Below, one piece after another: positions 23,059 to 61,853 of a stretch of DNA of 64,000 nucleotides. The notes beneath the pieces are model-generated. The model made no database searches, was not told where the DNA came from, and worked only from the letters and a program-made list of their open reading frames with translations. The position numbers and the translations under genes are program-made. Within the stretch, counting starts at the first letter, position 1; every line of letters starts with the position of its first letter. Origin of the DNA: Actinomycetota bacterium (lineage in GTDB: Bacteria; Actinomycetota; Thermoleophilia; Solirubrobacterales; 70-9); the NCBI GenBank assembly GCA_005885405.1, contig VAYN01000005.1:9819-73818 (forward strand), given 5' to 3'.

Positions 23059-23979
23059 CTAGCCGCGCGAGGCGCCGGACACCGCCAGCGCCACCGCAAT
23101 GTCCGCAGCAACCCGATCCGGCTCGCTCTCCAGCTGCGTGTCGTCGTAGCGGAGAGCGGTGTAGCCGGCAGAGCGGAGGTCGAGGTCGCGGGCGTGGTCG
23201 TCTTGGAAGGCGACGGAGCCGCGGTGGTAGGTCCAGAAGTCGGTCTCGACTACGACTCTCTGGTCACGCCAGAGGAAATCCACGGTCCAGCGGCCCAGCT
23301 TGACGTTGACCTCCGGGTGCGGGAGGCCGTAGCGGTGGACGATGTCGAGGAAGAGGGTCTCGAGGTCTGAGCGGGTGCGGTCGGTGGCCAGGTGCTCGAG
23401 GCGGTAGCCCTTGAGCTCGGCCTGGCGGGTGGCGCGACGGAGGAGGTGGGGCTCGAGGAATGAGGTGCTTCGGAGATCTTCGAGGGTGCGGGCGACGGTC
23501 GTGACCGGGATGTTGTGGCGGTGGGTGACTAGGAGCCTTCCCCGTCGCCCTCCTTCTTGCTGCGAGTAGGAGGGCGACGGGGAAGGCTCTGGGTGCGGAT
23601 TGAGGGAGGGGGTGCGATGAAGGTGGATGCCGGGCCGGCGGGAGCGACCCGAGGCGGATGGGACGGAAATGTGGACGGGGCCGTCGATCGGCTTCAGGAG
23701 CTCCCAGAGGACCGCGGCGGAGACGTGGCTCAAGACGGCGCCTGGGCCGCAGGCGAGCACCGCCGCCATGAAGCGCCCGTGGAGGCTCAGGCCGCGGTGC
23801 CCGACGGCGTAGACGCCGCGGTAAATGCGATGGAGGCGCCCGTTTCGCGAGCGTTCCGAGATCGCCATCCGTCCCATTCCCACGGCCGCTAGCTGCTTCG
23901 CCGTCACTACCCCGTGCTGTCCAGCGGCGATCCGAGAAACCTCGGCATCGGGCGTGTCGACTTTGTAAGGCATAGCCAT
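23059..23979 (-). CDS. AbiEi_4-like N-terminal domain plus DUF559 (Vsr-like endonuclease fold) protein
   Basis: The N-terminus (GVVTAKQLAAVGMGRMAISERSRNGRLHRIYRGVYAV) and the C-terminus (LPHPEVNVKLGRWTVDFLWRDQRVVVETDFWTYH) match the widespread actinobacterial DUF559 family. It carries an in-frame hairpin insertion at 23533..23589. Confidence 0.75.
   Translation of the reverse strand: MAMPYKVDTPDAEVSRIAAGQHGVVTAKQLAAVGMGRMAISERSRNGRLHRIYRGVYAVGHRGLSLHGRFMAAVLACGPGAVLSHVSAAVLWELLKPIDGPVHISVPSASGRSRRPGIHLHRTPSLNPHPEPSPSPSYSQQEGGRRGRLLVTHRHNIPVTTVARTLEDLRSTSFLEPHLLRRATRQAELKGYRLEHLATDRTRSDLETLFLDIVHRYGLPHPEVNVKLGRWTVDFLWRDQRVVVETDFWTYHRGSVAFQDDHARDLDLRSAGYTALRYDDTQLESEPDRVAADIAVALAVSGASRG
23533..23589. 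repeat. perfect 22-bp-stem / 13-nt-loop palindrome inside the DUF559 coding sequence
   Basis: gagccttccccgtcgccctcct-tcttgctgcgagt-aggagggcgacggggaaggctc. It is 57 nt, a multiple of 3, and the ORF stays open. It encodes roughly PSPSPSYSQQEGGRRGR. Confidence 0.85.
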
Positions 23980-24012
23980 ACAAAGTCGACAGGGACCCTG
24001 GGTTCTCCCCCC

Positions 24013-34867: not shown

Positions 34868-35826
34868 TGAGGATCGGGATTGCCGGCTGCGGCCGGATCG
34901 CCGAACGCGGCTACGTGCCGGCGGCGCTGGCGGCGGAGGGGGTGACGATCGCCGGCTTCGCCGACCCCGACGGCGAGCGGCTCGATCGCTGTCGGCGGCT
35001 TTGGGCGGAGGAGGGTGACGAGGCTCCAGGCTTTGCCGACGTCGCCTCGCTGCTCGCGTCGGTCGCGGTCGACCTGCTCGTCGTCTCGGCACCCGCCGAC
35101 CATCACGAAGCACTGGCGGCAGAGGCGGCCGCGGCTGGAGTCAGGTCCTTTGTCGAGAAGCCGCCCGCTCCCGACCTCGAGGGCGCGCGCCGCCTGGCAG
35201 ACCTCGACCCGCAACCCCTCATCGCCTTCAACCGCCGTTTCCTCCAGGGCGCCGAGCTGCGCGACTCGATCCCCGCCGAAGGATGGCTGGAGCTCGACCT
35301 GGAGTTGCGCTTCCGCCGCGACAGCTGGGGCGCCCACGAGGCGCACGACGAGGCACTCCTCGATGCCGGCATCCATCTGATTGACCTCGCCTGCTTCCTC
35401 ACCGATTCGGCCCCGATCGCCGTCCGCGGCGCAGAGGTGAAACACGAGCGGGCGGACCTGGAGGTGGAGCTCGCCCGGGGCCGCGCCCGGATCAGCTGCG
35501 CGACGGATCGATCGCACCGCGAGGCGATCAGGGTCACCGACCGCTCTGGAAGGACACTGGCCCGGTCGCATTGGGGCGGCATCGGCGGCCGCCTCGCGGG
35601 TCTGATCGGGAGGCCCGACCCACTGGTCGTTTCCCTGCAACGTCAGCTAGAGGCGGTGGGGGTGTCCCTGATGGACCCTCCCCATTTTGTCCAGCAGGGA
35701 TACCCCCATCGCCTCGCCACAGCAGCCGATGGCGTCGCCGCGTTGGCTGTTGTCGAGGCAGCACGTCGTTCCGCTGAACTGAACGGCGCCGAGGTCACCG
35801 TCGAGCAGGCCGAGGCCACCGCGTGA
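34867..35826 (+). CDS. Gfo/Idh/MocA-family NAD(P)-dependent oxidoreductase
   Basis: MRIGIAGCGRIAERGYVPAL... Rossmann N-terminus. The ATG overlaps the upstream stop (ATGA). Confidence 0.8.
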   Translation: MRIGIAGCGRIAERGYVPAALAAEGVTIAGFADPDGERLDRCRRLWAEEGDEAPGFADVASLLASVAVDLLVVSAPADHHEALAAEAAAAGVRSFVEKPPAPDLEGARRLADLDPQPLIAFNRRFLQGAELRDSIPAEGWLELDLELRFRRDSWGAHEAHDEALLDAGIHLIDLACFLTDSAPIAVRGAEVKHERADLEVELARGRARISCATDRSHREAIRVTDRSGRTLARSHWGGIGGRLAGLIGRPDPLVVSLQRQLEAVGVSLMDPPHFVQQGYPHRLATAADGVAALAVVEAARRSAELNGAEVTVEQAEATA

Positions 35827-37322
35827 TCGCCGTCATCCAGTTCGACGCCGCCAGTGCCCGCCTGCTGGAACGGCTCGGGGACGAAGGCCGCCTGCCAAAC
35901 CTGGAGGCGCTGCAGGCGCGGGGAACCCGCATCGCTCTGGAGACCCCTGCCGAACACTTCCCCGCCAGCGCCTATCAGGACCTCTACCGCGGAGTCGAGG
36001 TCGGCGACCACGGGCTCTTCTACCCCTTCCAGTGGGCCGGCGACGACCAGCGGGTGCGGCTGGCAGGCACCTTCGAGGCGCCGCCACCGATCTGGGACCG
36101 CCTCGGCCGCGCCGGCCGCAGCACCCTCGCAATCGACCCTTACGAGTGCCACCGACCAGGGGAGGCACGGGGGGAGCTCTTCGACGGCTGGGGGATGCGG
36201 GAGCGGGTGGTGCTCGAGCGCTGGTCGGTGCCGGACGGAGCTGACCGCGGGCCGCGCCGTCGCCACGGCCGTCCGCCCGATGTCACCGAGGTCTTCGGCG
36301 CGCAAACGCCAAAGGAGCTGCGCCAACTGCGCGAGCGCTTCCTGGCGGCGCCCAAGCGCGTCGCCGACCTCGCGATCGAGCGCCTGCGCGAGCGCGATTT
36401 CGACCTCGCCTGGATCGTCTTCGCCGCCCCCCACCTCGCCGGCCACCGCCTCTGGGGAGATGACGCCCTCACCGAGATCTACGAGGAGGTCGACGCCCAG
36501 CTCGGCCGCGTCCTCGAGGCGCTGGCGGACGACTGCGACGTGATCGCCTGCTCAGTCTTGGGCATGGATGAGAACACCAGCCGAGCCGACCTCCTGCCGG
36601 AGATGCTCTCAGCCGTCCTAGCCGGCCCCAGGCAAAGTCGTGGTTCCTTAGTCCGGAATAACAGGACAAAGGAACCACGGAACTCGGAGGACTCCGACTC
36701 TGGGGCGATATGGCGGCTTCGCGGGGCGCTCTCGGGGCGGATGCGGGCCCGGATTGCCGCCGCGATGCCGGACCGGATGGCGCTGGAGCTGACGGCGCGG
36801 CTGGAGCTTCGCGGCATCGACTGGAGCTCGACCCGCGCCTTCGCCCACCCGGCCGACAACCAGGGCTACATCCGCTTCAACCGCACCGGGCGCGAGCGCG
36901 ACGGGATCGTTGGCAGCGGCGAGGCGGAGGAGCTGGCGGCGCAGATCCGCGAGGGCCTACTCGACTTCCGCGACCCCGACGGACAGCCGGCGGTGACTGC
37001 GGTCGACGCCGTCAGCGAGCGTTGGCATGGAGCCGCGGCCGACCGCCTCCCCGACCTCGTCGTCCGCTGGCGCCCCACCTCCTCGGTCGCCCTCGACGCG
37101 GTCCACTCCCCCAGCTTCGGCACCGTGCGCCGCCACGGCGCCGGCAGCGGCCGCACCGGCAACCACACCGACGGCGACGCCTGGGCGATCCTCGCCCCCC
37201 GCAGCGCCCGCGTCCGCGACCTGGGGCGCCAGGCAAAGGTCACCGACATCACCGCCACGGTCGCTGCCGCGAGCGACGTACCGCTCGAAGGTCTCAGCGG
37301 CGAGCCGCTCCTGCAGCGGTAG
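35823..37322 (+). CDS. alkaline-phosphatase-superfamily protein (nucleotide pyrophosphatase/phosphodiesterase-like, divergent)
   Basis: The N-terminus (IQFDAAS...LPNLEAL...FPASAYQDLYRGVEVGDHG) and C-terminus (GNHTDGDAWAI) resemble PF01663-type enzymes. The central SDHG-like motif is degenerate. It contains the family-B palindrome in-frame. Confidence 0.6.
   Translation: MIAVIQFDAASARLLERLGDEGRLPNLEALQARGTRIALETPAEHFPASAYQDLYRGVEVGDHGLFYPFQWAGDDQRVRLAGTFEAPPPIWDRLGRAGRSTLAIDPYECHRPGEARGELFDGWGMRERVVLERWSVPDGADRGPRRRHGRPPDVTEVFGAQTPKELRQLRERFLAAPKRVADLAIERLRERDFDLAWIVFAAPHLAGHRLWGDDALTEIYEEVDAQLGRVLEALADDCDVIACSVLGMDENTSRADLLPEMLSAVLAGPRQSRGSLVRNNRTKEPRNSEDSDSGAIWRLRGALSGRMRARIAAAMPDRMALELTARLELRGIDWSSTRAFAHPADNQGYIRFNRTGRERDGIVGSGEAEELAAQIREGLLDFRDPDGQPAVTAVDAVSERWHGAAADRLPDLVVRWRPTSSVALDAVHSPSFGTVRRHGAGSGRTGNHTDGDAWAILAPRSARVRDLGRQAKVTDITATVAAASDVPLEGLSGEPLLQR
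36637..36683. repeat. family-B palindromic element, copy B1 (in-frame in 35823..37322)
   Basis: gtcgtggttccttagtccggaataacaggacaaaggaaccacggaac. Over 45 nt it is 41/45 identical to the reverse complement of 60543..60591. It forms a local low-GC pocket. Confidence 0.85.
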
Positions 37323-59669: not shown

Positions 59670-59720
59670 GGGCGGGGGATGAGTATGAGGGACGGGGGTG
59701 GTTGGCGCGCGGGTCCCGTC

Positions 59721-59801
59721 GGGGGGTCCGGGGGTCCATCTCCAGACACATCTCGCCTATGGCTCATGTTGAGTGTCTGGCGACGAACCCCCGGACCCCC
59801 C
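59721..59801. repeat. 81-nt nested palindrome in the intergenic region (15-bp outer arms, 8-bp inner arms)
   Basis: Outer arms are ggggggtccgggggt (59721..59735) and acccccggacccccc (59787..59801). Inner arms are ccagacac (59742..59749) and gtgtctgg (59773..59780). Confidence 0.75.
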
Positions 59802-59822
59802 GCCACCCGCGCGAGAGGCCGC

Positions 59823-61853
59823 CTAGCTACACCCCGAGGGACCGAGGTTGGTGGGCAGTTGGAGGACTGCCGTGGGAGGCTGTTTCAAGATGAGTTTGCC
59901 TCCCATGCGCTCGATCCACTTGGCTGCGGGTGGGTATGGAGGCTTGCCGGGTTCCAGACGGTCGCGGGTGGCTACTGCGTAGTCGTAGTCGCCCTCTTTG
60001 AGTAGCTGGAGGTACTGCTCGCAGGTGGTTGGGGCCTCGAAGCCGCCGTGGGGCTGCTCGATGCCTAGGTACTGGACGTGGTTGGAGAGGTCGGTGCCGA
60101 AGAGGGGGTACTGGCGGGTGCTGGTGGTGGCGATGCGGGCGTCGGAGACCTCGCGCGCCCAGGCGAAAGCCGCGTTGAGGCCTGGGGCCGAGGTGAAGCT
60201 CGGGTCCTCGTACCGGCCCTCCAGGTAGTGGCGCTGGACGGGGTAACCGACCGCGATCGCCAGCAGGAGCGCCGCGGCTCCACCCGCGATAGCCCATTGA
60301 CCGCCTCTCCGCGGAGTGTGGTTGAGCTTCGTGGCGCTATCCGCCCCAAAGCTCAACCACACCCGGAGGCGGGGGGCCGTTGGCAGCAGGGCGAGGCCGA
60401 GGACCAGGGCCGGGGCGAGGTAGCGGAGACCGGACTCGAAGCCACGCGGCATCCCGTCCGGACCCGAGGCCGACGTCGGCGCCACCAGCCACGCCAGCGC
60501 CGTCGCCAAACCCACTGCGCCCGCCAGCGCCAGCGTCAAATCGTTCCGTGGTTCCTTTGTCCTGATATCCCGGACAAAAGAACCACGGAACTGGACGACG
60601 GCGAGGATCAGGCCGGCCAAGGCGGCGGCGAGCAGGAGCGGCCAGAGGAGCCAGAGGCCGTCGTGGAGACCAGGGAGGAACCAGTCCGACCAGACGCTGC
60701 CGTCGCTGAGGTAGCCGAGGACGGAGTGGGCTTCGCGGCCGCCGAGGGCCTGCTGGGGCGCGGGCAGATCGATCGGACCGAGGTGGCGGATCCAAGGGAG
60801 CGGATTGCCGCTGTGGGCGAGGTTGCGGAGGTACCAGTAGCCGCCGCCGGCCAGTGCGGCCAAGGCCGCGGCGCCAACCGCGCGGCCTTTTAGGCCGCGC
60901 GGCGCGATAAGACCAACGCCGAACACCAGCACCGCCGCCGGCAGGAGGAAGTTGAGCTTCGTCCCCGCCGCCAGCCCCGCGCACAAACCGACCACGAGAT
61001 ACGACCCGAACGCAGTTGTCCCCGGTATGCGGGGATAAGTGCGTTCGGCTGCCGAACCCTCCCAGGCGTTGAGCGCGATCGCCACCGCGCTCAGCAGAAA
61101 GAAGATCCCGACGATGTCGTTCCTCGCCTCCCCCGCCTGGTCCGCCAGCGCCGGAACGCTGAGCGCGATGGCGCCAAGGGCCAGCGACCACGGCGCCACT
61201 CGATAGGGGCGCCCGATACACCAACACGCGACCAAACACCCCACGAACCAGCCGATGTTGAGCAGCGGCGATAGCACGTCCCGGCCGAACGCCAGCATCC
61301 CGGCCGCGTGGAAGATTTCTCCGTTCGCTGGGTAGAACCAGGCCAGGAACTGCGGAGCGATGAAGAGCAGATTCCACGTGTCGCCGCTCTGATAGAACCC
61401 CGCCGCGAACGGCCCGTGGTACCAGGTGCTGTCGAACCCGGTCATCCCCGTCGAAAGCTTCGACTTCGCTTCCCAGGCAAAGAGAGCGACCGCGATCCCG
61501 GCAACAACAAACGCAATCGCCGCCGGGAGGGGGGTCATCCGCACCCTTACCTGCGAAGTAGGGTGCGGATGACCCCCCTCCCCCTCGGACCGCGGCAAGA
61601 ACCTCCAAAGACCGAGCCCCGCTGCACCAACGAGCACCAAGTACGGCACCGGCTCCCACAGGCCGAAGCTCCCGAGCAGCTCCGCGCCCCAAATCAGCAA
61701 CGCCAGCGCCACCACCGCGCTAGCCAGATACGCCGGCGCCCCCTCGAACCGCGGCAACAGCCTCCTGCGCACCGCGTCCCCGCCCAGCCAGGCGAACCCG
61801 CCCAGCAGCAGCACCTCTAGAACGCCCAGCAGGTACCGCCCCGATCCGAGCAT
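59823..61853 (-). CDS. large polytopic membrane protein, GT-C-glycosyltransferase-like (family not verified), carrying three in-frame palindromic insertions
   Basis: 676 aa with more than 12 TM segments plus a soluble C-terminal domain. The insertions are at 60316..60364, 60543..60591 and 61525..61582. Confidence 0.6.
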   Translation of the reverse strand: MLGSGRYLLGVLEVLLLGGFAWLGGDAVRRRLLPRFEGAPAYLASAVVALALLIWGAELLGSFGLWEPVPYLVLVGAAGLGLWRFLPRSEGEGGHPHPTSQVRVRMTPLPAAIAFVVAGIAVALFAWEAKSKLSTGMTGFDSTWYHGPFAAGFYQSGDTWNLLFIAPQFLAWFYPANGEIFHAAGMLAFGRDVLSPLLNIGWFVGCLVACWCIGRPYRVAPWSLALGAIALSVPALADQAGEARNDIVGIFFLLSAVAIALNAWEGSAAERTYPRIPGTTAFGSYLVVGLCAGLAAGTKLNFLLPAAVLVFGVGLIAPRGLKGRAVGAAALAALAGGGYWYLRNLAHSGNPLPWIRHLGPIDLPAPQQALGGREAHSVLGYLSDGSVWSDWFLPGLHDGLWLLWPLLLAAALAGLILAVVQFRGSFVRDIRTKEPRNDLTLALAGAVGLATALAWLVAPTSASGPDGMPRGFESGLRYLAPALVLGLALLPTAPRLRVWLSFGADSATKLNHTPRRGGQWAIAGGAAALLLAIAVGYPVQRHYLEGRYEDPSFTSAPGLNAAFAWAREVSDARIATTSTRQYPLFGTDLSNHVQYLGIEQPHGGFEAPTTCEQYLQLLKEGDYDYAVATRDRLEPGKPPYPPAAKWIERMGGKLILKQPPTAVLQLPTNLGPSGCS
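60316..60364. repeat. family-A palindromic element, copy A2
   Basis: gtgtggttgagcttcgtggcgctatccgccccaaagctcaaccacaccc. Arms are gtgtggttgagctt / aagctcaaccacac. It is translated in the host as SFGADSATKLNHTPRRG. Confidence 0.85.
60543..60591. repeat. family-B palindromic element, copy B2
   Basis: gttccgtggttcctttgtcc-tgatatccc-ggacaaaagaaccacggaac, with 19/20 matching arms. It is translated in the host as FRGSFVRDIRTKEPRN. Confidence 0.85.
61525..61582. repeat. perfect 22-bp-stem / 14-nt-loop palindrome inside the membrane-protein gene
   Basis: ggaggggggtcatccgcaccc... in detail: left arm 61525..61546, loop ttacctgcgaagta, right arm 61561..61582. It is translated as EGEGGHPHPTSQVRVRMTPLP. 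Confidence 0.85.

Follow-up and report, generated by a model that had tools for sequence, protein, structure and literature searches.

A dispersed 49-bp palindrome of Solirubrobacterales is read in frame in two unrelated genes, and the encoded peptide follows the DNA

Two copies of one palindrome in unrelated genes

The window analysed here, a stretch of 64,000 nucleotides of contig VAYN01000005.1 (positions 9,819 to 73,818, forward strand) in the Actinomycetota assembly GCA_005885405.1 (Solirubrobacterales; 70-9), carries two copies, B1 and B2, of a 49-bp palindromic element designated family B. B1 (36635..36683, plus strand; conserved 41-nt core at 36639-36679) lies in the open reading frame (ORF) 35823..37322 of the plus strand, encoding a 499-aa AlkP-superfamily protein with a Phosphodiest domain (Pfam PF01663) at residues 3-261. 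In this protein the element is read as residues S272-N287 (SRGSLVRNNRTKEPRN), within a Gly/Glu/Ser-rich linker of variable length between NTSRADLLPEMLSAVL and DSDSGAIW. B2 (60543..60591, minus strand; core at 60547-60587) lies in the ORF 59823..61853 of the minus strand, encoding a 676-aa polytopic membrane protein that is located between murJ and lepA and conserved in relatives, and for which Pfam returned no match. Here the element provides residues F422-N437 (FRGSFVRDIRTKEPRN) in a loop between two hydrophobic segments. G + C at third codon positions (GC3) is 0.86-0.93 in the same frame on either side of both elements, in support of the in-frame placement in two unrelated proteins that had been proposed in a first, sequence-only reading of the window. 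Identical counterparts of the window's proteins carry the label of a soil 'Actinobacteria bacterium' metagenome-assembled genome (MAG).

On the plus strand B1 reads AAGT-CGTGGTTCCTTAGTCC-GGAATAACA-GGACAAAGGAACCACG-GAAC (36635-36683), while B2 on the minus strand reads GTTC-CGTGGTTCTTTTGTCC-GGGATATCA-GGACAAAGGAACCACG-GAAC (60591-60543), or GTTC CGTGGTTCCTTTGTCC TGATATCCC GGACAAAAGAACCACG GAAC on the plus strand (60543-60591). Both consist of 20-nt arms around a 9-nt loop, close to the arms of about 20 bp and the loop of 8-9 nt first described. Alignment reproduced the reported identity of 41/45 positions between B1 and the reverse complement of B2 (from CGTGG to GAAC), which becomes 41/49 over the full element, and both copies are read in frame as xRGS(F/L)VRxxRTKEPRN. 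In the other orientation 37/45 positions are still identical, so the orientation of B1 and B2 is assigned by the loop, the element being an almost perfect palindrome; the earlier statement that both copies share one orientation agrees with the loop but carries little weight. A 2-nt deletion, previously assumed in the left arm of B1, is untenable because all 29 element-bearing orthologues share a linker of 47 residues and such a loss would break the frame. Indeed, the two copies are equally long and align without gaps, AAGT-CGTGG being a terminal variant that is frequent in the family.

The 20-mer arm occurs three times in the window, compared with 0.00 expected from 100 dinucleotide shuffles. 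Long hairpins are predicted on either strand, with folding energies of -26 and -37 kcal/mol (z-scores of -5.2 and -7.7) for B1 and B2, respectively, and the segments are confirmed to be conspicuously low in GC, with contents of 0.49 and 0.51 compared with 0.73 and 0.71 over 1 kb of flanking DNA. An AlphaFold2 model of the AlkP-family protein (20-sequence alignment) reached a mean pLDDT of 40.6, too poor to place the insert, and a PDB profile search with the same protein gave no homologue; the assignment of B1 to a surface loop therefore derives from the variable Gly/Glu/Ser-rich linker in homologues.

A dispersed family beside stop codons

A species-representative genome collection (596 Gb) was scanned with one 17-nt arm of the element (GGACAAARGAACCACGG), which matched at least 118 loci; all census figures in this section hold among the matches listed and are biased toward copies with one perfect arm. 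By chance, about 140 matches are expected in 596 Gb for a 17-mer with one two-fold position, and the low-GC matches were taken as chance because they hold a single arm only, as chance predicts. Full palindromes number about 105 and are spread over about 85 high-GC loci of many MAG species, whose hosts are exclusively Solirubrobacterales, Conexibacteraceae and unclassified 'Actinomycetes' MAGs. Family B is a lineage-specific dispersed repeat of Solirubrobacterales, as had been anticipated from the two window copies. Its core, CGTGGTTCCTTTGTC-N11-GACAAAGGAACCACG, measures exactly 41 nt in every copy. The outer arms (CGTGGTTCCTTT / AAAGGAACCACG) are conserved and the inner stem is variable yet paired, while the 4-nt flanks on either side vary (GTTC, ATCC, ATCG, AAGT) in mixed combinations. 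The loop follows the consensus CGSMTATASAS, in which a conserved G.A asymmetry sets the orientation, and the flanks of the census copies revealed no consistent target-site duplication. Full-text literature searches for palindromic repeats in Solirubrobacterales or Thermoleophilia retrieved nothing relevant.

Most copies are extragenic and about 10% lie in frame inside genes. Genes around the census copies were called by a simple GC3-phase method that is approximate for each individual call, and the aggregate signal at stop codons is strong. Of 47 flanks with a gene pointing at the element, about 30 place its stop codon at -3 to +14 nt relative to the end of the 49-bp unit. Distances of 71-80 nt come from doublets, being measured at the second unit while the first abuts the stop codon. 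A gene end adjoins 26 of the 30 classified intergenic units (11 convergent, 15 co-directional and 4 divergent). At two loci, L080:4043-4091 and L090:6834-6882, a single 49-bp element constitutes the entire spacer between convergent genes, with stop codons 2 and 0 nt (L080) or 3 and -1 nt (L090) from the element ends. Orientation relative to the upstream gene showed no bias, with 12 copies in orientation P and 8 in orientation Q.

The 85 census units comprise 62 singles, 20 doubles and 3 triples. Arrays of two or three units have a period of 70-72 bp, with spacers of 21-23 nt that share no sequence, and the units of an array, which differ among themselves, are mostly alike in loop orientation. 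The triples are found at L027:3316-3499, L096:6681-6863 and L074:4695-4875, beside the 20 doublets such as L003:1240-1360. The constant spacing could possibly arise from measured insertion beside a resident copy or from the binding of a factor in helical phase.

In-frame copies were identified by a strict test, in which the ORF had to be open for at least 120 nt on each side, GC3 had to reach 0.8 or more on either side in one common frame, and second codon positions had to be lower in GC than first positions. Eleven census copies, the two of the window included, passed this test and represent eight independent host sites once orthologues are collapsed. The hosts are the AlkP-family enzyme, the membrane protein of the window, its 35%-identical paralogue (in a different loop), another large membrane protein, an FGE-sulfatase-domain protein, a HAD hydrolase, dihydropteroate-synthase-like (DHPS) Pterin_bind proteins of two MAGs at the same site and PgeF/Cu-oxidase_4 proteins, likewise of two MAGs at the same site. 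The frame RGSFVR..RTKEPRN is used at six of the eight sites, SVVPLS..GQRNHG at two and VPWFLC..DKGTTE at none (p about 0.025), which extends to a wider sample the frame preference suspected from the window. Stop codons were rejected as the sole cause of this bias, given that the proportion of copies with an open frame is 81%, 82% and 68% for the three frames. The simplest explanation of the bias would be that loops tolerate a charged, flexible peptide.

Orthologous sites: repeated absence and retained pairing

Protein searches returned AlkP-family orthologues of 499 aa with the 16 residues, of 483-485 aa without them, and of 517 aa with them plus an unrelated 18-aa indel. A metagenome scan then provided 80 orthologous AlkP-family loci (51-91% identity), in which the segment from NTSRAD to DSDSG was compared. 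The element-bearing linker is 47 aa long and occurs in 29 of the 80 orthologues, while more than 40 have element-free linkers of 31-39 aa, rich in Gly, Glu and Ser. The element-free class contains several loci of 65-76% identity, one locus of 51-55% in which the anchors were found, and the close relatives L119 and L123 (91%); the remaining loci of 51-55% identity have short linkers without the element in the tree alignment. In a neighbour-joining tree all carriers of the element fall into one crown clade, interspersed with members that are without it, and the basal groups lack it throughout. The existence of orthologues that lack the 16 residues, which the sequence-only reading had proposed as a check, is thus established by 29 filled and more than 40 empty linkers.

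Sister pairs within the crown clade differ by the clean loss of about 45-48 nt, as in L151 (..SS[RGSFQSPSDQKEPRD]GEDSD) compared with L156 (..SSGEDSD). Four orthologues, L124, L126, L127 and L156, have 32-aa linkers (..QSRNSEDSD in L126, ..SSGEDSD in L156). These look like precise, hairpin-sized deletions that spared the outermost codons of the element and are consistent with slippage across the base of the stem. Judged from the alignment and the tree, the most parsimonious history of B1 would be one gain in the ancestor of the crown clade followed by many hairpin-sized deletions. Separately, the 18-aa indel (QVPPYIDDGEIAA.ERERL) is present in L122 and the other 517-aa orthologues; the window protein is without it, its position being about 36456, after HRLWG. 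It was considered as another palindrome and rejected, since its DNA is not evidently palindromic.

All 29 orthologous B1 copies still fold. Covariation was analysed in an ungapped 60-column alignment of these copies with symmetric pairing around the centre. Paired cells account for 80.6%, compared with 70.2% after shuffling, two-sided changes occur in 14 of 23 pairs (74 cells), and one pair shows all four Watson-Crick types. The covariation score of 0.230 exceeds that of shuffled alignments (0.086; 0/500 reach 0.230) and of slid registers (at most 0.079). The inner stem is found in paired versions, namely TTTGTCC/GGACAAA, TTTCGGAC/GTCCGAAA, TTTCGCAC/GTGCAAAA and TTTGTCGCC/GGCGACAAA. In L137, GGTTCC/GGAACC has become GGCGCC/GGCGCC on both outer arms, by which RGSF..KEPR is changed to RGAF..KAPR. 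The A.A mismatch that B1 of the window contains is absent from L122, where a change in the opposite arm restores the pair and replaces Lys by Met. The view of B1 as an older, decaying copy does not survive these observations, its orthologous hairpins being maintained and even repaired by compensatory change. The membrane-gene orthologues L200, L201 and L202 carry, at the B2 site, GC-rich and fully compensated arms (CGGGGCGCTTTTG...CAAAAGCGCCCCG or similar) with the peptides RGAF..KAPR or RGGL..KPPR, so that the family sequence is gone and the pairing is intact.

Third codon positions in the arms of the 29 orthologues stay A/T (CGT, GGT, TTT, CCA; GAA in 100%), whereas an A/T majority is seen in 0 of 75 four-fold codon families of the flanks, where third positions have a mean pairwise identity of 0.66. 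DNA-level pairing dictates the amino-acid change, and the peptide follows the DNA.

The membrane-protein gene holds further palindromes. Three more in-frame hairpin palindromes of other sequence families were observed in the ORF 59823-61853 (minus strand), at 61525-61582, 61006-61048 and 60304-60374, encoding GEGGHPHPTSQVRVRMTPLP, AERTYPRIPGTTAFG and PRLRVWLSFGADSATKLNHTPRRG, respectively (RNA fold z = -9.2, -4.7 and -6.6). Together with B2, this gene carries four translated palindromes. In orthologues the corresponding segments are variable, replaced or absent, with an 18-aa gap at the second (61006-61048). Membrane-protein paralogues of about 35% identity at L093:6965-7005, L105:3705-3745 and L117:1448-1488 have a family-B element read as SVVPLS..GQRNHG around residues 275-290; as this loop is the one that holds the palindrome 61006-61048 in the window protein, the same loop appears to have been repeatedly hit or tolerated. 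At the B2 site, the orthologues P0144, P0148, P0194, P0218 and P0189 have another segment of similar length (..LRRRAENLDISREIGPSA.. or RRRDESTPLWREIGPSAG), which may be another inserted element in the same loop. In the short spacer between the membrane-protein stop codon and the lepA start, a G/C-rich inverted repeat unrelated to family B (59720-59802; 30-nt arms, -68 kcal/mol, z = -7.9) may act as a terminator or attenuator. Elsewhere in the window, a repeat finder detected near-perfect palindromes at 23533-23589 (28-nt arms, 93% complementarity) and 23955-23991 (17-nt arms, 94%).

Interpretation and comparison with known systems

The explanation that we consider probable is that family B is a repeat of this lineage that resides mainly outside genes as a 3'-end hairpin, that tolerated in-frame insertions are translated, and that a constraint on the nucleic acid retains the hairpin within them. 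The element typically resides just downstream of a stop codon, within a few nucleotides, as a single unit or an array of two or three, and often makes up the whole spacer between convergent genes. There it would most likely serve as an orientation-independent 3'-end hairpin, i.e. a transcript terminator, a stabiliser or a signal coupled to ribosome release, by analogy with the mode of action proposed for REP elements and for the TRIT ('tuberculosis Rho-independent terminator') hairpins of mycobacteria. The family would have spread by a copy-and-insert process, with a minority of insertions landing inside genes, and those that survived would present a stop-free, hydrophilic frame (RGSFVR..RTKEPRN) in a flexible surface or inter-helix loop. 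The ribosome would read through B1 and B2, adding 16 residues, as with Rickettsia palindromic elements (RPE). In the retained B1, a nucleic-acid-level constraint would keep the hairpin together with its A/T-rich arms, the peptide following the DNA.

Several points weigh against this explanation. No transposase, target-site duplication or recent insertion polymorphism was found, the loci not having been scanned for HUH/Y1 transposases, so that mobility is inferred from the dispersal of the family to unrelated sites. The hairpin has no U-tract, the gene calls behind the stop-codon distances are crude, and the frame bias comes from eight sites. How many copies one genome has is uncertain (perhaps tens to about 100); the density is 2 per 64 kb in the window, and gene-seeded loci gave one further copy. 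The neighbour-joining tree is poorly resolved, and repeated insertion at a hot spot would be a less parsimonious alternative to a single gain of B1. The nearest filled and empty linkers also differ in the adjoining codons, so the junction is not clean and, because of these differences, no target-site duplication is readable at the AlkP-family site.

How the hairpin is kept inside genes is the point on which the main alternatives differ, either selection on a nucleic-acid function or hairpin-templated correction being a conceivable cause and both fitting the data. The in-gene hairpins might be functional and selected in their own right, as an RNase III-like target, a translation pause or a site for a binding factor, with the 16 residues as the price. 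The strong covariation at an orthologous in-gene site, the retention of A/T third positions against a GC3 of about 0.9 and the survival of pairing through GC-rich replacement of the arms in L200-L202 speak for this possibility, and a binding factor was inferred by the authors of the TRIT study from a similar sequence conservation (PMC3152330). We nevertheless regard it as unlikely, as the many losses in the crown clade have had no visible effect on the gene, the functions of the various hosts are unrelated, and G.U pairs are not favoured on the sense strand (4 G.U cells against 24 A.C cells), so that the signature is not that of a sense-mRNA structure. Alternatively, the in-gene copies could be neutral passengers, in which template switching inside the hairpin at replication (quasipalindrome correction) copies one arm onto the other, no selection being needed, and ectopic gene conversion by other members of the family keeps the consensus. 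Double changes are indeed common and one-sided (G.U) intermediates rare (about 7/644 cells), the inner stem and loop vary as blocks, and the symmetric, GC-ameliorated versions in L137 and L200-L202 are what correction under GC pressure would be expected to yield. Templated correction alone, however, leaves the A/T-rich family sequence in most lineages unexplained. When the two in-gene copies of a genome were compared in 15 contig-matched pairs, moreover, no consistent correspondence of subtype emerged, which argues against strong concerted evolution. Taken as a whole, this alternative is rather doubtful, albeit one to be kept in mind. Between the two causes, the persistence of A/T-rich arms across the entire order, in extragenic and intragenic copies alike, favours selection on a nucleic-acid function, while the scarcity of one-sided intermediates, the symmetric GC-ameliorated derivatives and the repeated dispensability of the element favour templated correction.

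Two further explanations are highly improbable. The 16 residues might form a genuine protein motif, such as a binding or processing site, with the palindromy incidental, and RGSF and KEPR do recur in many proteins. Yet the same DNA is mostly extragenic, a second frame (SVVPLS..GQRNHG) is read in other proteins, the basal orthologue groups are without the segment, and the variants keep base pairs exactly, Ser with Glu being exchanged for Ala with Ala, or Gly with Pro. No homologue keeps the peptide without the palindrome, the observation that would have spoken against an inserted element, and the rejection of a protein motif in the sequence-only reading was well founded; the motif is effectively refuted. 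The 49-bp repeats with their unique spacers of about 22 nt could also be viewed as degenerate CRISPR-like arrays, with solitary copies as stray repeats, in keeping with the regular 70-72 bp period, the non-conserved spacers and the mostly uniform orientation within an array. This idea has next to no prospect given that, among the matches listed, arrays hold at most three units, repeats sharing an array diverge at many positions, the majority of units stand alone and directly adjoin stop codons, and Rfam gave no match at the gathering threshold in the whole window. A CRISPR array was rejected on unit number and divergence; neighbouring cas genes were not looked for.

Returning to the 3'-end hairpin with tolerated in-frame copies, one could go further and speculate that family B is a domesticated, sequence-specific hairpin signal read by a dedicated DNA- or RNA-binding factor, much as suggested for TRIT in mycobacteria, rather than selfish DNA, an extension that we put forward tentatively and consider improbable at present. 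Such a signal would mark gene ends and couple ribosome release to transcript termination or processing. Selection would keep the hairpin even in coding sequence, leaving proteins with a 16-residue 'shadow' of a nucleic-acid signal, and the phased arrays of 70-72 bp would reflect cooperative binding of the factor. A dedicated binding factor would offer a handle on transcription termination or mRNA processing in Thermoleophilia.

Family B is of interest for how good the evolutionary evidence is and for the gene-end signal that it may represent. With it, protein-coding palindromes, known from reduced and AT-rich bacteria of intracellular habit, are found also in a free-living order of soil actinobacteria with roughly 70% GC, in which the carriers of inserts include essential-type enzymes (DHPS, PgeF and the AlkP-family enzyme) and membrane proteins. 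The 80 orthologues constitute an unusually clean natural experiment, in which an in-gene hairpin can be tracked through deep divergence and repeated precise loss. For annotation, the family accounts for length polymorphisms of Solirubrobacterales proteins and for the low-GC islands of about 16 residues that recur in them, and it points to a likely gene-end signal in a lineage that probably has few canonical terminators.

Among known systems, the in-gene copies are closest to RPE (Ogata et al. 2000, as cited in PMC10969869), which that source describes as dispersed palindromes of about 100-150 bp lying in frame in unrelated, often housekeeping, genes, with a hydrophilic, tolerated peptide and insert-free orthologues. 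The coexistence of several families and the presence of several elements in one gene are further points of likeness. Family B is a dispersed family with in-frame copies, insert-free orthologues and compensatory substitutions, as in an RPE-like class, and is set apart from RPE families 1-10 by length and host. According to the same source RPE occur in AT-rich obligate intracellular alphaproteobacteria, nearly half of them being intragenic, whereas family B, at 49 bp a third of the length, is found in free-living actinobacteria of about 70% GC, with only about 10% of copies intragenic and no sign of a sequence relationship to RPE, whose consensus sequences were not compared.

Outside genes, the resemblance is to REP, BIME and REPIN elements, which are short palindromes at gene 3' ends, single or in regularly spaced clusters, with occasional intragenic copies (PMC2817692, PMC3733652, PMC12306157). 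The distance of REP elements from a stop codon is often no more than 15 nt, and they are able to stall ribosomes at termination (PMC12306157); intragenic REPs have been reported in several phyla in a survey that does not mention Actinobacteria (PMC3733652). Family B is likewise mostly extragenic and near gene 3' ends. However, REPs have stems of 8-13 bp, loops of 4-5 nt and a GTAG or CGTC tag, those with GTAG being tied to RAYT transposases, while family B has a 20-bp stem, a 9-nt loop and array units of mostly the same orientation. Its termini are GTTC, ATCC, ATCG or AAGT followed by CGTGG, with no conserved GTAG or CGTC as in the REP definition (PMC3733652). MITEs (Correia/NEMIS, ERIC, SPRITE) are similar in being small and non-autonomous, with terminator-like transcript hairpins and occasional in-frame fusion, but possess terminal inverted repeats around a non-palindromic body and target-site duplications (PMC10969869, PMC3184786), as opposed to the one continuous hairpin of family B, which shows no detectable duplication.

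The profile of TRIT may be an even closer match than REP to the extragenic copies. TRIT comprises 147 sequence-conserved, mostly bidirectional palindromic hairpins of Mycobacterium with a 'very narrow' distribution around stop codons and a suspected dedicated factor (PMC3152330). Both families are restricted to one lineage within Actinomycetota and share perhaps about 10^2 copies, conserved bidirectional palindromic hairpins, a narrow distance to stop codons and the absence of classical U-tract logic. They are set apart by description, TRIT being centred about 8 nt inside the coding end in Mycobacterium only, with no in-frame internal copies or arrays described (PMC3152330), compared with a start 0-14 nt past the stop codon in family B. 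Family B is, in sum, an undescribed family that involves no new principle and belongs to none of the described ones, resembling REP and TRIT outside genes and RPE inside them.

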